Source: Clostridia bacterium (GTDB taxonomy: Bacteria; Bacillota; Clostridia; UMGS1810). From it: 25,396 nt of DNA. A model generated the notes under the pieces. It saw only the letters and a list, made by a program, of their open reading frames with translations. It was not told the DNA's origin and searched no databases. The stretch spans positions 1-25,396 of the forward strand of contig JAZSJF010000139.1 in the NCBI GenBank assembly GCA_045534195.1, in the 5' to 3' direction. Below, piece after piece: positions 1,715 to 23,838 of this stretch (within the stretch, counting starts at the first letter, position 1; the number at the start of each line of letters is the position of its first letter). A program made the translations under genes and the position numbers.

Positions 1715-2404
1715 ATGGAAAATTTGATTCTGGTAGTAGATGATGAAAAACCTATCGTGGATATACTCAAACTCAACCTTACCAAAAGCGGATATAAGGT
1801 TGTAGAGGCTTATGACGGAGAAGAAGCAGTAGAAAAGGCAAAATCCTGCGATCCTGATCTTATTTTGCTGGATGTTATGCTTCCTAAGATGGACGGATTC
1901 GGCGTGTGCAAAAAAATCCGCGAAACATCTTCCACTCCCATAATTATGCTCACTGCAAGGGAAGATGAAGTGGACAAGGTACTGGGACTTGAACTTGGTG
2001 CCGATGACTATATGACAAAGCCTTTCAGTCTGAGAGAACTTCTGGCAAGAGTCAAGGCAAATTTAAGAAGAACAGTTATAGCCGTTACAGACAACAGTCA
2101 GTCGGATATAATGGAATTCGGTGCGATTAAGATTATCCCCGAAAAGTACGAAGTTACAAAAAACGGAACAGTAATAGAACTTACATTCAGAGAGTTTGAA
2201 CTTCTCAAATTCCTTGCTATGCAGAAGGGTAAGATTTTTTCCAGAGAATCCCTTCTCAACAAAGTATGGGATTATGAATTCTACGGTGATGTAAGAACAG
2301 TAGATGTTACCGTAAGAAGACTTAGAGAAAAGATAGAAGACAACCCGAGCGAACCACAGTACATAATGACAAAAAGAGGTGTGGGATACTACTTCCACGA
2401 CTAA
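1715..2404 (+). CDS. walR: OmpR-family response regulator WalR (YycF)
   Basis: Receiver VVDDE...LLDVMLP...MLTA...KPF; DNA-binding segment GDVRTVDVTVRRLREKIEDNPSEPQYIMTKRGVGYYF closely matches WalR; followed by walK, yycH-like and yycI-like genes. SD AAGGAG. Confidence 0.88.
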   Translation: MENLILVVDDEKPIVDILKLNLTKSGYKVVEAYDGEEAVEKAKSCDPDLILLDVMLPKMDGFGVCKKIRETSSTPIIMLTAREDEVDKVLGLELGADDYMTKPFSLRELLARVKANLRRTVIAVTDNSQSDIMEFGAIKIIPEKYEVTKNGTVIELTFREFELLKFLAMQKGKIFSRESLLNKVWDYEFYGDVRTVDVTVRRLREKIEDNPSEPQYIMTKRGVGYYFHD

Positions 2405-2415: not shown

Positions 2416-2437
2416 TTATATATTGGAGGACATTCAG

Positions 2438-4225
2438 GTGGTTCAGGACAAAAAGTTTTTTAAATCCAGTGTCCGCTATAAGATTATGGCGATGTTTGTG
2501 CTTCTTACAATATCCGTAATCATTATTATCGGGACATTTATGATAAACAGAATAGACAGGTTTTATAATGACGAGTTTGAAACTCTTATGACCAATGTGT
2601 TCAGTGAGGATTTTCAGAGAGAACTTGATATGAAACTTTCGGGAGAAGATCCCCTCTCAAGTATTGATTCCAGTATTACTGCATATCTGGGACAACTTGG
2701 TATAGATTCTTTCAGAAATTACTATATTCTCGATGCATATAACGGAAAGGCACTTTTGTCATCAAACAGTGCTCTTGCAAAGACTCTCATTGCCACACCC
2801 AATATTATTGCGGCTATGAACGGCAAGGTGGGAGATATGTCGGGATATACCTCCAAATATATGGACTACAGTGTGCCTGTAAAAGACGGAGCCGATGCGA
2901 AATATATCATATACATAAAGGATTCCAAGGAAGAAGTTGATGATATGGTCAACAACATTCTTTCCATTATCTTTATGGCGCTGGGACTTGGAATCATTAT
3001 TTCCATCGCATTCGGATTTCTTCTTTCCAAAACCATTATATCACCTATATCATCCCTTACACAGAAGGCACAAAAAATCACTTCAGGTGATTTCGGCGAC
3101 ACAATCGAAGTGAATTCTTCTGATGAAATCGGTCTTCTTACAAAGACATTCAACGATATGGCGGTGGAACTTAACCAGACTCTCGGCGAAATCAAAGGAG
3201 AGCGTGACAAGGTAGAAACGATTCTCAGACATATGGCAGACGGGATTATGGCGTTTGACAACCACGGCAGAATTATCCATATAAACCCTGCTGCAAGGGA
3301 GATTCTCGGAATCGAAAAGATTGAAAAACTGCATTTTAACGAAATATTCAAAATCACCGATCTTACTGTTACAAGAGTAATGTTTTCCGGTGAGTACAAC
3401 GCTATAGAAAAGCAGATGGAAGTGGGCGAAAAGGAAATCAAACTTCTTTTTGCCAAGTTTAAGACAGATGACACACCGGGCGGTGTGGTGGTGGTTATCC
3501 AGGATATCACTCAGCAACAAAAACTGGAAAATTCCCGTAGAGAATTTGTTGCCAATGTTTCCCACGAGTTAAGAACTCCCCTCACTACAGTGAAAGGGTA
3601 TGTGGAAACAATGATGGATTCTGTTGAAGAGAACGATATTGACAGGGATATGTTCCATACATTCCTCAGTACCGTAAACAAAGAAACCGACAGAATGACA
3701 AGACTTGTAAAGGATCTTCTTACCCTTTCAAAACTGGACTACGGTCATAGAGAACTGAAAAAAGAAGATGTTGATGTATCAAATCTTGTAATGAGTATCG
3801 TTGATAGAATGAAAATCAACGCTTCCTCAAAGGATATCGAACTTGTTTATGAGCCTACAAATCAACTTCCTGTTATTTCGGGAGATAAAGACAGACTTGA
3901 ACAGGTGATAGTAAATATCATATCCAACGCCATCAAATATACTCCCGGCGGAGAAGGAAGGGTATTTGTTTCCACCGGAAGAATGTATCAGAATGTGTAT
4001 ATCAAGATAAGGGATAACGGTATGGGCATACCAAAAGACGATCTTCCTCATGTGTTTGAGAGATTTTACAGAGTGGATAAAGCAAGAAGCCGTGAACAGG
4101 GCGGTACAGGTCTTGGCCTTGCAATATCCAATGAAATCATCAAGGAACACGGCGGAAAAATCACTATTTCCAGTGATTACGGTGTGGGAACAGAGGTTAT
4201 TGTTATGCTTCCTGTGGATGAATAA
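2438..4225 (+). CDS. walK: Sensor histidine kinase WalK (YycG): 2 TM, extracellular domain, HAMP, PAS, HisKA, HATPase
   Basis: RREFVANVSHELRTPLT H-box, NIISNAIKYT N-box, DNGMGIP, FERFYRVDKARSREQGGTGLGLAI. Start moved from track TTG 2423 to in-frame GTG 2438, which lies 8 nt after GGAGG (2425-2429). Confidence 0.88.
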   Translation: MVQDKKFFKSSVRYKIMAMFVLLTISVIIIIGTFMINRIDRFYNDEFETLMTNVFSEDFQRELDMKLSGEDPLSSIDSSITAYLGQLGIDSFRNYYILDAYNGKALLSSNSALAKTLIATPNIIAAMNGKVGDMSGYTSKYMDYSVPVKDGADAKYIIYIKDSKEEVDDMVNNILSIIFMALGLGIIISIAFGFLLSKTIISPISSLTQKAQKITSGDFGDTIEVNSSDEIGLLTKTFNDMAVELNQTLGEIKGERDKVETILRHMADGIMAFDNHGRIIHINPAAREILGIEKIEKLHFNEIFKITDLTVTRVMFSGEYNAIEKQMEVGEKEIKLLFAKFKTDDTPGGVVVVIQDITQQQKLENSRREFVANVSHELRTPLTTVKGYVETMMDSVEENDIDRDMFHTFLSTVNKETDRMTRLVKDLLTLSKLDYGHRELKKEDVDVSNLVMSIVDRMKINASSKDIELVYEPTNQLPVISGDKDRLEQVIVNIISNAIKYTPGGEGRVFVSTGRMYQNVYIKIRDNGMGIPKDDLPHVFERFYRVDKARSREQGGTGLGLAISNEIIKEHGGKITISSDYGVGTEVIVMLPVDE

Positions 4226-4227
4226 AA

Positions 4228-4282
4228 TGTCAAGTTAATGTAATGACGCTGTAATATATCTGTAACAAAAGGATAGTATAAT
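4228..4282 (+). promoter_or_regulatory. Tandem WalR-type boxes plus -10 element upstream of the 4339 gene
   Basis: TGTCAA-N5-TGTAAT-N5-TGTAAT-N5-TGTAAC (4228-4266, exact 11 bp period); last three fit the B. subtilis WalR half-site TGTWAH; TATAAT at 4277-4282; the boxes cover the -35 position, which has no consensus. Confidence 0.75.
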
Positions 4283-4338
4283 AGTAAATGTAGAAATGAC
4301 GAAAGTTGGAATACTCTTTTTTGCGGAGGTAATATATT

Positions 4339-4794
4339 ATGAAAAAATTTGTTATAGCAATCCTTTGTATGATGATTGTTATCATTCCGTTTGGTGCAAT
4401 GGCTGCACCGGAATTTGTAGGTACCGGTTATGAAGGAAACACCAATGCGCTCTTTACAGTGCTCAATCCTGATTCTTTCAGTACAACCACATCAAGTTCT
4501 ACCTGTATCGTATCTGCTGCAGGTACAAAGAACTCTACAATGGCTGTATATCTCTATGATGCTTCTACAGGTATGTACAGAAAGATCAATACATTTATCA
4601 ACGATGTGAAACAGAATGAAAAGGTTGTTGGAGTAAGCGGTCTTTATGCAGAACAGGTACTCCTCAGAAATGGCCTTAACAAAATTCTTGTATATGCTCA
4701 ACTTGGTTCTGATATTCAGACACAAAGACTTGAAGTTACTCTTGTTTCCGACAAGTTCGGCGGCAATCTCAAGGCTTATGTAATGGGCAAATAA
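4339..4794 (+). CDS. Secreted hypothetical protein, single beta-rich domain
   Basis: SD GCGGAGGT; signal peptide MKKFVIAILCMMIVIIPFGAMA-A; L..G.N.I.VYA pattern typical of Ig-like beta-sandwiches. Confidence 0.8.
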   Translation: MKKFVIAILCMMIVIIPFGAMAAPEFVGTGYEGNTNALFTVLNPDSFSTTTSSSTCIVSAAGTKNSTMAVYLYDASTGMYRKINTFINDVKQNEKVVGVSGLYAEQVLLRNGLNKILVYAQLGSDIQTQRLEVTLVSDKFGGNLKAYVMGK

Positions 4795-4824: not shown

Positions 4825-6261
4825 ATGAGAAAAATACACTTAAAAAACGCTGTACTGGTAGTTCTTATACTGTGCAGCGTTATTTTAGCCTTTAATACCT
4901 GGACGGATGAAAAATTATGGTCCGATGACTATAATTTTTTTTCTGTTATTAAACAGAAACTGGGACTTTCGGATAAATACGGTGCTTTTGGTTCATTGTC
5001 AAAAGAGCGTCTTGCCATGCCCCACAGAATAGTGGTGAATAATTCTGCCAAACGAAGTGTGTATTATCAGAATGAGGAAGGATTTGAAGAACTTTTTCAT
5101 AGTGTGAGAACAGTTTTTGAAAAGGCACTCCAGACTGAGAAATACCAGACTGTATCTGAATCCAAGTGGTACTCTGCTATCAAAAACAAATCTGTGTTTG
5201 TCACATATCCGGCAGTGTATGATATATCCATTATAGGGGATATATTCAGAATAAAAGATCCGGAAATCTCCGTAGGCAGTATGAAACAGTTTGTCATCAC
5301 TTCCGAGTCGGACTATGACGATACACTCAGTGTGTATATCAGAGATGAGAAGGATGGCAGTTTCAAATTGTGTTATGTGGATTATGAAATTGCCAAATTT
5401 CTTGATGTGGTTGAGGGCAGTGCGAAGGATTCCGCAGGTGCTCTTCCATATTCCTTTGAATTGAATTTTGACAAAGGCGGCGACAAAAAGCAGAACACTC
5501 TTATCGGATCGGAAGTTCTTTTGAACATTGTTCCCACAAAGCACAAAGGAATCGCACCTTCAAACCATATTGTGGCATCAGACGGAAGGTTCAGATCTGA
5601 TGTTGTGGAAAAAATCCTTAAATGCTTTGACTACAACACTTCATCCCCGAGAAAGTATCCGGACAAGGATGATGTTGTTTATGTAGAAAATTATTCCACC
5701 ATCAGATTTTATAAATCAGGTGTTGTAGAATATAAGGCAATTGCAAATGATAAGGGGATTTCCCTTGATGTTTCCAACAAAGACAATATCAGAGAGGTAT
5801 ATTCTGCATCTCTCGGTTTTGTGTCAAAACTGTGGCAGACCGCAGTGCCTGACCGTGAACTGAATCTTATGGTGTCTTCCGATGTGGTGGGACTTAATAA
5901 AAATTCCACTTTCAAAATCACTATGAATTATTACAACGACGGATATATAATAAGAGATGATATAAATATGGACATAAACAACAGTGTTATGACCAATGCG
6001 GTAGAAATGGTGATTACTTCCGGCAAGATTGTTTCATACCGTCAGGTGATGAAGTTGTATGATGAAACAAATGAAACTCTTATGAATATGTCCACAATAG
6101 ATGCCATAGACGAGTTGTATCAGAATGAGGAGTTTTCTCTGGGCAAGGCAGTTGTAAGCATTACTCCTGCATATACCTTTGACGAAAACGGCAACTGCAT
6201 TATGACTTATATTGCACTGGATGACAAAAAACAGGAATTCCTTTTGAAACAGCGGGGATAA
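4825..6261 (+). CDS. yycH: YycH (WalH)-like membrane-anchored WalK regulator
   Basis: N-terminal TM (K.AVLVVLILCSVILAFNTW), large extracellular region, position between walK and yycI-like gene; sequence identity itself is weak. Confidence 0.6.
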   Translation: MRKIHLKNAVLVVLILCSVILAFNTWTDEKLWSDDYNFFSVIKQKLGLSDKYGAFGSLSKERLAMPHRIVVNNSAKRSVYYQNEEGFEELFHSVRTVFEKALQTEKYQTVSESKWYSAIKNKSVFVTYPAVYDISIIGDIFRIKDPEISVGSMKQFVITSESDYDDTLSVYIRDEKDGSFKLCYVDYEIAKFLDVVEGSAKDSAGALPYSFELNFDKGGDKKQNTLIGSEVLLNIVPTKHKGIAPSNHIVASDGRFRSDVVEKILKCFDYNTSSPRKYPDKDDVVYVENYSTIRFYKSGVVEYKAIANDKGISLDVSNKDNIREVYSASLGFVSKLWQTAVPDRELNLMVSSDVVGLNKNSTFKITMNYYNDGYIIRDDINMDINNSVMTNAVEMVITSGKIVSYRQVMKLYDETNETLMNMSTIDAIDELYQNEEFSLGKAVVSITPAYTFDENGNCIMTYIALDDKKQEFLLKQRG

Positions 6262-6275
6262 GGAGGTAAGATTTT

Positions 6276-7019
6276 ATGAACTGGAATAAGTTAAAGACAT
6301 TTCTTATTGTGCTTTTTTCAGCATTGAATATTATCCTTATTATCACTATGCTTACAAAGGATTACAAAGAAACGGTTGTGCCTCAGACCACTATACAGGA
6401 CACTGTGGAAATCCTTAATAAGAGAGGGATAAGCATAGATAAATCCATTATTCCCGACAGGGCAAAAAATATGGAAGGATTCCCTATGCAGACTATAGAT
6501 TTTGACAGGATTCCATACAGAATAAGCCATCCCGGCGGCGGAGTTTTTGAATTCAGTGTGCCCATAGAGGTTGATACGGTCAAGGAGGTAAAGAAACTTA
6601 CCGAAAAACTGGGTATCGGATATGCGGAATTTACATCAGATGCATCTGATATAAAGAATATCAGAGCAGTTCAGGTAATAGATGATTATACAATATTCGG
6701 AAATTATCTGGATATAGAAGTGCTTGACAAAATAGTAAAGGTCAAAGGCGAATGGCTCAATCCATCAAATCATACACTTGAAAATGAGGATGAAGTCGAG
6801 CCTTCCCAGGTCACAAGCATACTTATGGAATTTATATCCAACCCTGACAGACCTCAGGGAAATATTACTATAAAAAATATACAATTCGGATATTTTGCAC
6901 CTGAATATACTCTTTCGGAAGAAATACAGACAATGACTGTTGTACCTTGTTGGGAAATAGCACTTGACACGGGAGAGAATTTCTATTATGATGCAAGAAA
7001 CGGAGAATATCTCAAATAA
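6276..7019 (+). CDS. yycI: YycI (WalI)-like WalK regulator
   Basis: N-terminus MNWNKLKTFLIVLFSALNIILII fits the YycI MDW.K.K.IFI..FL.LNI pattern; C-terminal VPCWEI...F.YDA; SD AAGGAGG. Confidence 0.7.
   Translation: MNWNKLKTFLIVLFSALNIILIITMLTKDYKETVVPQTTIQDTVEILNKRGISIDKSIIPDRAKNMEGFPMQTIDFDRIPYRISHPGGGVFEFSVPIEVDTVKEVKKLTEKLGIGYAEFTSDASDIKNIRAVQVIDDYTIFGNYLDIEVLDKIVKVKGEWLNPSNHTLENEDEVEPSQVTSILMEFISNPDRPQGNITIKNIQFGYFAPEYTLSEEIQTMTVVPCWEIALDTGENFYYDARNGEYLK
6964..6992 (+). promoter_or_regulatory. sigmaA promoter inside the 3' end of yycI, pointing at ybaB
   Basis: TTGACA (6964-6969)-17 bp-TATGAT (6987-6992). Confidence 0.6.
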
Positions 7020-7048: not shown

Positions 7049-7402
7049 ATGGCAAAAGGCGGTAGATTTCCCATGGGAGGCATGGGCGGTATGGGCAATA
7101 TGAGTTGAATGATAAAGCAGGCACAGAAGATGCAGCAGGATATGCTCAAAATGCAGGAAGAAATGGAGCAGACAAGTTATGAAGCATCATCAGGCGGCGG
7201 AGCAGTGACAGTAAAAATGTCAGGCAAAAAGGAACTTCAGGAGATTATATTGAAGCCCGAAGTTGTGGATCCTGATGATATCGAAATGCTTCAGGACCTT
7301 ATTCTTGTTGCAGTGAACGATGCTATGAAAAAGGTGGATGATGAAAATCAGACACAGATGTCAAAACTTACAGGCGGTATGAATATTCCCGGTCTGTTTT
7401 AA
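7049..7402 (+). pseudogene. ybaB: YbaB/EbfC nucleoid-associated protein with in-frame TGA at codon 20 (7106-7108); possibly expressed from ATG 7109
   Basis: AAGGAGG SD 7034-7040 then [31 protein letters not shown]...[41 protein letters not shown]...[12 protein letters not shown], the canonical family sequence. Confidence 0.85.
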
Positions 7403-22626: not shown

Positions 22627-23838
22627 ATGAAAAAATTCCTTACAAGAGTACTCGCTCTTGCACTCGTTTCTCTTATGTTCGCTATGCCATGTATGGCAGC
22701 AAGTTACACAAGCGTAACATATGAGGGCGACACAATCACAGTATCACTTGATGGTTACAGCCAGGGTGATGAAAGTACAGTTATCATTGTTAAAAGCGGC
22801 GTAAATCTCGCTAATGTTGCTGACGGCGAAATTGTAAACATTGACCAGAAGCCTGTATTGAATGCTGACGGTACAGTTTCGTTTGATCTTCCTGTTGACG
22901 AAAGAGCACAGGAAATCGGTGTTACTGCTGTAGACATTTATGTCGGCGGTACTTCACTTGATGAAGCCGTTAAGTATTCTGAAACAATCACACTTAATCA
23001 GCAGTCTGTTATTTCATACACATATGAAGCATCTTACAAGACAAGCACAACAGGTGAATTTGAATCTGTTGCAGATGCTAAAGCAGACATCCAGGTGTTG
23101 AGAACAAAATCTGTTGACGGTGTTGCAGACGAAACAAAAGACGATGTTACATCATCTTGTGAACTCAGAGACGCAGGCAACGGTGTTATCGAAGTATACT
23201 ATGCAGGTAATAAGGTAGATGATATCACTTATACAATCGTAAGTTTCACATATACATATGAAGCATACTTTGTAAACAACACATCAAACTTCATTTCTGA
23301 TATGGATGCAAAGACAAGCGTAAAAGTTATCAGAAAAGAATATAAGAACGGTGAATACACAGGCGCGGCTAATGATAAGGATGTAACAAGCCGTGCAACA
23401 ATCACTGCTGCAAACGGAGTAGCAACGGCAGAAATCTTTGAATACGGTTTCAAACAGACACTTAACTACTCACTTGTAACACTTGGTATCTCCGGTGTTG
23501 TTAACAGTCCTGAACTTGAAACTGTTATCGAAAATGCACTTGTTTACCTCTATGAAGGTGAGACACTCAAGGGTGCGACACTTACTAAGGAAGACGGCTC
23601 ATATTCATTCAATATCGGACAGGGTAAATATACAATCGTTGTTTCTGCATCATTTGTAGATACATTCGACTTCTCTGTATATCAGCTCGCTCCAATCGTA
23701 GAAGAAGTAGAAATCACTGCTGATGGCTTCGCTACAAAGAACTTTGAAGTTATGTTCCCTGTTTACGGTGATGTAAATCTCGACGGTAAAGTTAACATCG
23801 AAGATATGTACGAAGTAAGAGCATCTTACACAGAATAA
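22627..23838 (+). CDS. Secreted multi-domain surface protein: beta domain, two ~78 aa repeats, carboxypeptidase-regulatory/CnaB-like domain, single dockerin-like loop
   Basis: Signal peptide ending AMA-A; repeats at about 23005-23238 and 23239-23478; A.VYLY......T.T.EDGSYSF...G.YTIVVS; C-terminal YGDVNLDGKVNIEDM. Confidence 0.8.
   Translation: MKKFLTRVLALALVSLMFAMPCMAASYTSVTYEGDTITVSLDGYSQGDESTVIIVKSGVNLANVADGEIVNIDQKPVLNADGTVSFDLPVDERAQEIGVTAVDIYVGGTSLDEAVKYSETITLNQQSVISYTYEASYKTSTTGEFESVADAKADIQVLRTKSVDGVADETKDDVTSSCELRDAGNGVIEVYYAGNKVDDITYTIVSFTYTYEAYFVNNTSNFISDMDAKTSVKVIRKEYKNGEYTGAANDKDVTSRATITAANGVATAEIFEYGFKQTLNYSLVTLGISGVVNSPELETVIENALVYLYEGETLKGATLTKEDGSYSFNIGQGKYTIVVSASFVDTFDFSVYQLAPIVEEVEITADGFATKNFEVMFPVYGDVNLDGKVNIEDMYEVRASYTE

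Follow-up and report, generated by a model that had tools for sequence, protein, structure and literature searches.

The 25,396-nucleotide stretch of DNA from a Clostridia bacterium that is analyzed here (hereafter, the window) carries a gene cluster built around a WalRK-like two-component system; in Firmicutes, WalRK is essential, maintains cell-wall homeostasis, and is a drug target. The cluster opens with a gene for a Peptidase_S11 homologue (440-1696), and inspection by eye of the region upstream of this gene (222-440) turned up no convincing WalR box. Next, on the plus strand, come the genes for a walR-like OmpR-family response regulator (1715..2404; 229 amino acids, with the Pfam domains Response_reg and Trans_reg_C) and for a walK-like histidine kinase (2423..4225; 600 amino acids, with the Pfam domains HAMP, PAS, HisKA, and HATPase_c). 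The regulator, which we presume to be the binder of the array described below, is matched best, among 103 models, by the NCBIfam YycF model, with 339.8 bits (cut-off, 340), and an end-to-end alignment of the kinase with the WalK model of NCBIfam scores 472 bits, under the cut-off of 725.

Beyond the kinase gene, on the same strand, lies what appears to be an operon for accessory proteins of WalK. Its first gene (4339..4794) encodes a 151-amino acid exported protein that consists of a signal peptide, an Ig-like beta sandwich, and a C-terminal helix and belongs to no known family: it has no match in Pfam or NCBIfam, and its AlphaFold (AF2) model, derived from aligned orthologues (pLDDT 79), retrieved generic Ig-like or CARDB-like matches only in a Foldseek search. 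We flag this protein as a new candidate for a third WalK accessory protein. The adjacent gene (4825..6261) codes for a 478-amino acid protein, for which Pfam and NCBIfam likewise gave no match, and a profile search of PDB sequences produced just one hit, with E = 0.03, that we judged spurious. The AF2 model of this protein, built on 15 orthologues (pLDDT 82.8), recovered in Foldseek, as the top match, 9a5d_B, a WalK-YycH model (1.6e-20), along with 2fgt, the YycH protein of Bacillus subtilis (7.5e-17, TM 0.73), and YycI ranked after; judged by the modeled fold, the protein is YycH (WalH), at about 10% sequence identity, and only the fold search identified it as such. The accessory genes linked to walRK thus include both yycH, recognized by fold, and yycI (WalI), the latter through a 247-amino acid product (6276..7019) with a sub-threshold score for the Pfam YycI family (E = 1e-6, 28.9 bits vs a cut-off of 29.7). 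The 3' end of the YycI-like gene contains, at 6964-6992, a near-consensus, promoter-like site, TTGACA-17-TATGAT, that faces the ybaB/ebfC gene (7109-7402).

The half-site array and its promoter

Between the walK stop codon (TAA, 4223-4225) and the first accessory gene, the plus strand of the window reads TGTCAA-N5-TGTAAT-N5-TGTAAT-N5-TGTAAC (4228-4266), an array of four half-sites in the same orientation that begins 2 nt 3' of the stop codon, keeps an exact period of 11 bp, and is followed, after a spacer of 10 nt (4267-4276), by a perfect -10 hexamer, TATAAT (4277..4282). The predicted transcription start is located 6-8 nt past this hexamer, at 4288..4290, and a start at ~4289 would put the array at -61 to -23. 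Unit 1 (TGTCAA, 4228..4233, about -61 to -56) fits the WalR half-site TGTWAH in 5/6 positions, with C at the W position, and the fit is 6/6 for unit 2 (TGTAAT, 4239..4244, about -50 to -45), unit 3 (TGTAAT, 4250..4255, about -39 to -34), and unit 4 (TGTAAC, 4261..4266, about -28 to -23); the direct repeat TGTWAH-N5-TGTWAH that is used to define WalR sites is matched exactly by units 2-3 and by units 3-4. There is no -35 hexamer in the window at this promoter, with spacings of 16, 17, and 18 bp matching TTGACA in 2/6, 1/6, and 2/6 positions, respectively, and the usual place of that hexamer is occupied by unit 3 and the spacer. Thus, the phased array, the perfect TATAAT 10 bp downstream of it, and the overlap with the expected -35 position that an initial annotation of this DNA had described all hold, to the base. 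Further downstream, a GGAGG sequence (4325-4329) precedes the ATG at 4339. An antisense promoter with the reverse complement of unit 1, TTGACA, as its -35 was considered as well and dropped, given that the matching -10 position reads AAGCAT and that unit 1 is TGTCAA in just 5/84 related sequences.

The chance origin of the array is excluded. The four-unit pattern, TGTNA-N6 repeated four times, has 1 match in the window vs 0 in 100 dinucleotide shuffles, and this is the only match on either strand of the 2.04 Mb genome assembly (464 contigs, 37.6% G+C, 82% complete); the exact TGTWAH-N5-TGTWAH sequence is found 3 times in the window vs 0.33 expected. One exact match to the latter, at 22703-22719 on the minus strand, lies within an open reading frame (22627-23838), lacks promoter context, and is probably due to chance.

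Conservation of the module and its attachment to the accessory operon

Protein searches detected the YycH-like gene in 24/24 genomes of the same family as well as in 4 further families belonging to the class, and in nearly all of these loci, TGTAAY-N5-TGTAAY and a -10 hexamer are located between the kinase gene and an ORF of 150-170 amino acids. When 61 genomes of the same family were scanned with the strict composite TGTAAY-N5-TGTAAY-N8-12-TATAAT, exactly one match was found in 37/61 and never more than one in any genome, with 0 matches for the reversed control; among the loci with a match that were fetched, 29/30 represent the kinase-small ORF-YycH locus. The sole match off the locus (L032, G055:C4:17610-17642) is in an AT-rich sequence. 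A scan of species-representative genomes yielded 78 loci, all from uncultured gut Clostridia, Oscillospiraceae or Candidatus Aphodoplasma metagenome-assembled genomes, and about 68 of these have the exact box in the same place. Altogether, the module is present at 101/106 loci that carry the YycH-like gene. The counts from the family and the species-representative loci overlap in part, so that the safe count is 84 distinct sequences, and the related loci and sequences are not phylogenetically independent samples. The proteins encoded downstream have diverged to 21-40% identity among the related loci.

The 84 distinct sequences yield the consensus TGTTAT-N5-TTTAAA-N5-TGTAAT-N5-TGTAAC-N10-TATAAT. 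When the fit to TGTWAH was scored at each offset from unit 3, against a background of about 2.6 of 6, the mean scores were 5.52 for unit 1 (offset -22; consensus TGTTAT), 4.73 for unit 2 (offset -11), 5.90 for unit 3 (offset 0), and 5.98 for unit 4 (offset +11), where, units 3 and 4 having served to find the sites, only the scores of units 1 and 2 are independent; at offset -33, the score is 2.39, the background level. The score peaks at four in-phase offsets only, that is, the module consists of exactly four phased units. Unit 2 is degenerate, with the consensus TTTAAA outside the genus of the window and the full TGTAAT mostly confined to that genus. Unit 4 and the -10 hexamer are separated by 10 bp in 98/103 loci and by 11 bp in 5, and the -10 hexamer itself is TATAAT in 64/84 distinct sequences, with near-consensus hexamers in the remainder; no -35 hexamer emerges in the consensus of the related promoters. 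A canonical TGn extended -10 is found in 19/84 sequences.

In 78/106 loci, the module is located 3' of the kinase gene, the stop codon and unit 1 being a median of 9.5 bp apart. Terminator-like hairpins are present between the kinase gene and the module in only 4 of the 78 linked loci, and in the window, there is no terminator-like site between the kinase gene and the 151-amino acid ORF. Another 15 loci retain the module although the upstream 2 kb, at least, contain no kinase gene (the unlinked accessory operons L073, L104, L109-L112, L119-L121, L123, L124, L127, and L134-L136). Five of the unlinked genomes carry walR-walK elsewhere, with a regulator that is 65-67% identical, and in these 5 genomes, the walR-walK loci have neither the box nor accessory genes alongside. 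Because the module is kept where walRK is unlinked, it appears to belong to the accessory operon and to be its own, autonomous promoter. The initial annotation had held that yycH, yycI, and the small ORF before them are controlled separately from walRK and had pointed to orthologous regions as the place to look for the array; there, the array recurs, in 84 distinct related sequences and at the same operon, and its staying with that operon in the unlinked loci is in keeping with separate control. The TGn extended -10 is more common in the unlinked (8/15) than in the linked loci (11/63), a difference that is confounded by phylogeny, and may compensate for the loss of read-through from walRK. In linked and unlinked loci alike, the gene for the Ig-like protein is always the first in the accessory operon.

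The WalR-type regulator and its predicted regulon

The DNA-binding domain of the regulator encoded next to the array points to WalR as the probable binder. Its five best PDB matches are all WalR/YycF/VicR proteins (1e-35 to 1.5e-33), followed, at 9e-22, by RegX3, and the stretch GDVRTVDVTVRRLREKIEDNPS, which comprises the recognition helix and its flanks, is identical to that of B. subtilis YycF, in agreement with the initial annotation, which took this regulator to be WalR. As B. subtilis WalR has the identical helix, predictions on this promoter should be testable in a model organism, the hosts themselves being uncultured.

Boxes of the same type occur at cell wall hydrolase genes of the clade. 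In the genome of the window (G000), TGTTAC-N5-TGTTAA is located 6 bp upstream of TTGACA-17-TATAAT in front of an NlpC/P60-SH3 gene (C85:1627-1680; L150/L207), and this arrangement of box and promoter is conserved in 15/19 orthologues from the same family; the gene is a hydrolase gene predicted to be activated by WalR. More generally, TGTWAH-N5-TGTWAH placed 5-7 bp before TTGACA has 35 matches in 32/61 family genomes vs 2 for the reversed control, and the matches that do not involve P60 genes are upstream of genes for M23 peptidases and DUF348-G5-3D proteins, which are predicted to be further members of the WalR regulon. In related genomes, examples of the box with a -35 before M23 genes, whose products include a copper amine oxidase N-terminal-like domain, or before a DUF348-G5-3D gene are L190, L193, L197, L198, and L185. 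Hydrolases of the P60, M23 (LytM-like), and 3D (YocH-like) types make up the classic WalR regulon, and TGTWAH boxes at the hydrolase genes of this clade, therefore, lend independent support to TGTWAH being the WalR operator here. With these observations in hand, it seems highly probable that WalR is the protein that binds the array, and that 4228-4282 is a WalR-controlled promoter can be considered quite probable. In the same genome, at a contig start (C432:16-60), TGTTAT-N5-TGTCAT is followed, after 10 bp, by TATAAT upstream of a glycoside hydrolase (MGH1-like) gene; with one mismatch, the geometry of this site is that of the 4228-4282 promoter.

Proposed feedback on WalK and the sign of regulation

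By a modest preference, we read 4228-4282 as a sigma-A-type promoter without a -35 that would be activated by WalR~P and would create feedback on WalK through its accessory operon; that WalR binds, where transcription begins, that binding activates, and which way the feedback runs are all points that we infer from the DNA sequence. Under the proposed mechanism, the WalR orthologue from 1715-2404 would have the array as its operator, with two head-to-tail WalR~P dimers on the four half-sites, in 11-bp phase, covering about -61 to -23, although occupancy by the second dimer is uncertain given the degenerate unit 2 (TTTAAA) outside the genus. The promoter-proximal dimer, on units 3-4, would be positioned where sigma region 4 normally reads the -35 hexamer and, from that position, WalR~P could recruit RNA polymerase and switch on the operon for the exported Ig-like protein, YycH, and YycI. 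Once made, these proteins would associate with WalK in the membrane and adjust its activity. Given that there is usually no terminator after walK, we propose, in addition, read-through from the walRK promoter, which would provide the basal level of the accessory proteins, to which their own promoter would add a WalR-dependent level. A more far-reaching version of this mechanism, in which WalR~P, as two tandem dimers replacing the -35, sets the level of a WalK accessory complex that includes the Ig-like protein as a third subunit, and the array may also gate the read-through from walRK, uncoupling the stoichiometry of kinase and accessory proteins, is offered more tentatively; if it is true, such gating would release a stoichiometry that in Staphylococcus aureus is fixed by translational coupling.

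A close precedent for the geometry of this promoter comes from PhoB, an OmpR-family activator that contacts sigma region 4 at pho boxes. The Escherichia coli pho box, TGTCAT-N5-TGTCAC, ends 10 bp before the -10 hexamer, replaces the -35, and often occurs in tandem. The resemblance extends to the orientation of the repeats, the 10 bp to the -10 hexamer, which is the distance in 98/103 loci here, and the lack of a -35, whereas the regulator and the signal differ; activation by WalR from the -35 position is putative, by analogy with PhoB. The structure 3t72, a PhoB-sigma4-DNA complex, was listed in the PDB search with the DNA-binding domain of the regulator.

Compared to the known WalR (YycF/VicR) operators of Bacillus, Staphylococcus, and Streptococcus, the array shares the half-site, the spacing, and the direct repeats TGTWAH-N5-TGTWAH, the recognition helix of the regulator is identical, and the hydrolase genes of the clade have the same box. 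What sets the present case apart is that there are four phased units rather than one pair, that these replace the -35 instead of lying upstream of it, and that, in contrast to the published wal loci, the target is the WalK accessory operon itself. In S. aureus, walRKHI forms one translationally coupled transcript that has no WalR box and is not autoregulated (PMC4801191), and a study of walA-walR-walK-truA2 in Clostridioides difficile states that autoregulation of wal operons is absent from this species and from other Firmicutes (PMC9210968). Since the wal operons studied so far are reported not to be autoregulated, a WalR operator at the accessory genes, with four units in place of the -35, would count as new wiring that employs a known regulator and a known motif. 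The order walR-walK-yycH-yycI and the YycH fold are shared with the walRKHIJ operon of B. subtilis (PMC7299342), from which the locus differs by the additional exported gene between walK and yycH, by the predicted promoter and operator between walK and the accessory genes, by the separation of the accessory operon from walRK in some genomes of the clade, and by walJ, which was not found adjoining the accessory operon.

The sequence comparisons make it very probable that genes encoding the helper proteins of its own kinase are under the control of the Wal regulator. Response regulators that induce inhibitors of their own kinases, such as PhoP with mgrB and CpxR with cpxP, represent a common design, and the likeness consists in a response regulator controlling a gene that acts on the cognate kinase and so generates feedback; here, the accessory proteins are of the YycH/YycI type, together with a new Ig-like protein. 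WalH/WalI inhibit WalK in B. subtilis (PMC7299342), and two reports on S. aureus describe them as activating WalK (PMC5013275, PMC7355866). Because the accessory proteins can act on WalK in either of these ways, feedback would arise whichever the sign, and if they are inhibitors, as in B. subtilis, it would be negative feedback of the MgrB/CpxP type. The setting of the WalH/WalI level has not been previously considered a control point; if the proposed scheme is true, the WalRK system of a large clade of uncultured gut Clostridia has an extra layer of feedback that is absent from the model Firmicutes.

The main alternative concerns not the operator or its binder but the sign of the regulation. 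A ChIP-seq and transcription start site study of S. aureus associated activation with WalR sites located upstream of the -35 hexamer and repression with those located between the -35 and -10 hexamers or downstream of them (PMC10746227). With units 3-4 covering -39 to -23, this positional rule, which holds for S. aureus and B. subtilis (PMC10746227), predicts repression: WalR~P bound at -61 to -23 would occlude RNA polymerase, and the bound array would possibly also block read-through from walK, such that the accessory proteins would be made mainly at low WalRK activity. Consistent with this possibility, the hydrolase promoters of the clade, which are presumably activated, have the box upstream of a full -35, unlike the promoter analyzed here, and the TGn extended -10, present in 19/84 sequences and in 8/15 of the unlinked vs 11/63 of the linked loci, would supply intrinsic activity, independent of WalR, on which a repressor could act. 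However, most of these promoters, having neither a -35 nor the canonical TGn, would offer a repressor little activity of their own; no change in the direction of a -35 has evolved in the N5 spacer that separates units 3 and 4; and a distance of 10 bp that stays near-invariant over deep divergence suits a stereospecific contact between an activator and the polymerase better than it suits occlusion. Repression appears rather unlikely. The absence of a -35 in every relative, the lack of the canonical TGn in most of them, the near-perfect -10 hexamer, and the near-invariant, pho-box-like spacing between it and the box tilt the balance slightly towards activation by WalR~P. The initial annotation had maintained that activation and repression cannot be told apart from the sequence, and this was largely right, the evidence leaning towards activation. 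If WalR does drive the accessory genes from here, the promoter would be a clean natural example of WalR at the -35 position and, as such, a test of the positional rule for activation and repression.

Another caveat expressed at the outset was that a different OmpR-family regulator could be the actual binder; one such candidate is the PhoP-like regulator encoded on contig C19. There are at least five OmpR-family regulators in this 82%-complete genome, cross-recognition of sites between PhoP and WalR is known in B. subtilis, and the half-sites differ between the accessory promoters (TGTAAY) and the hydrolase promoters (TGTTAA). Yet, the WalR consensus TGTWAH, which was established by experiment, accommodates both variants, walK is linked to the box in 78 loci, and the WalR-type helix VDVTVRRLREKI is found only in the regulator adjacent to the array, the other four reading VDVHI or VDTHI, all of which makes a different binder improbable and speaks for WalR.

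Finally, it seems most improbable that the conserved element is not a regulated promoter at all but, for instance, a promoter with constitutive activity and a chance-like upstream repeat or, in a transcript shared by walRK and the accessory genes, an RNA element or processing signal: co-transcription is likely, given the lack of a terminator after walK in the window and in 74/78 linked loci, but Rfam gave no match at E <= 1 in 3900-4600, and the RNA fold of 4226-4338 is no better than that of shuffles, with no structure beyond chance (z = 0.55), on which grounds the RNA-element reading was dropped, and the four half-sites stay in register over 84 sequences, in a module that is kept even where no walK lies upstream.
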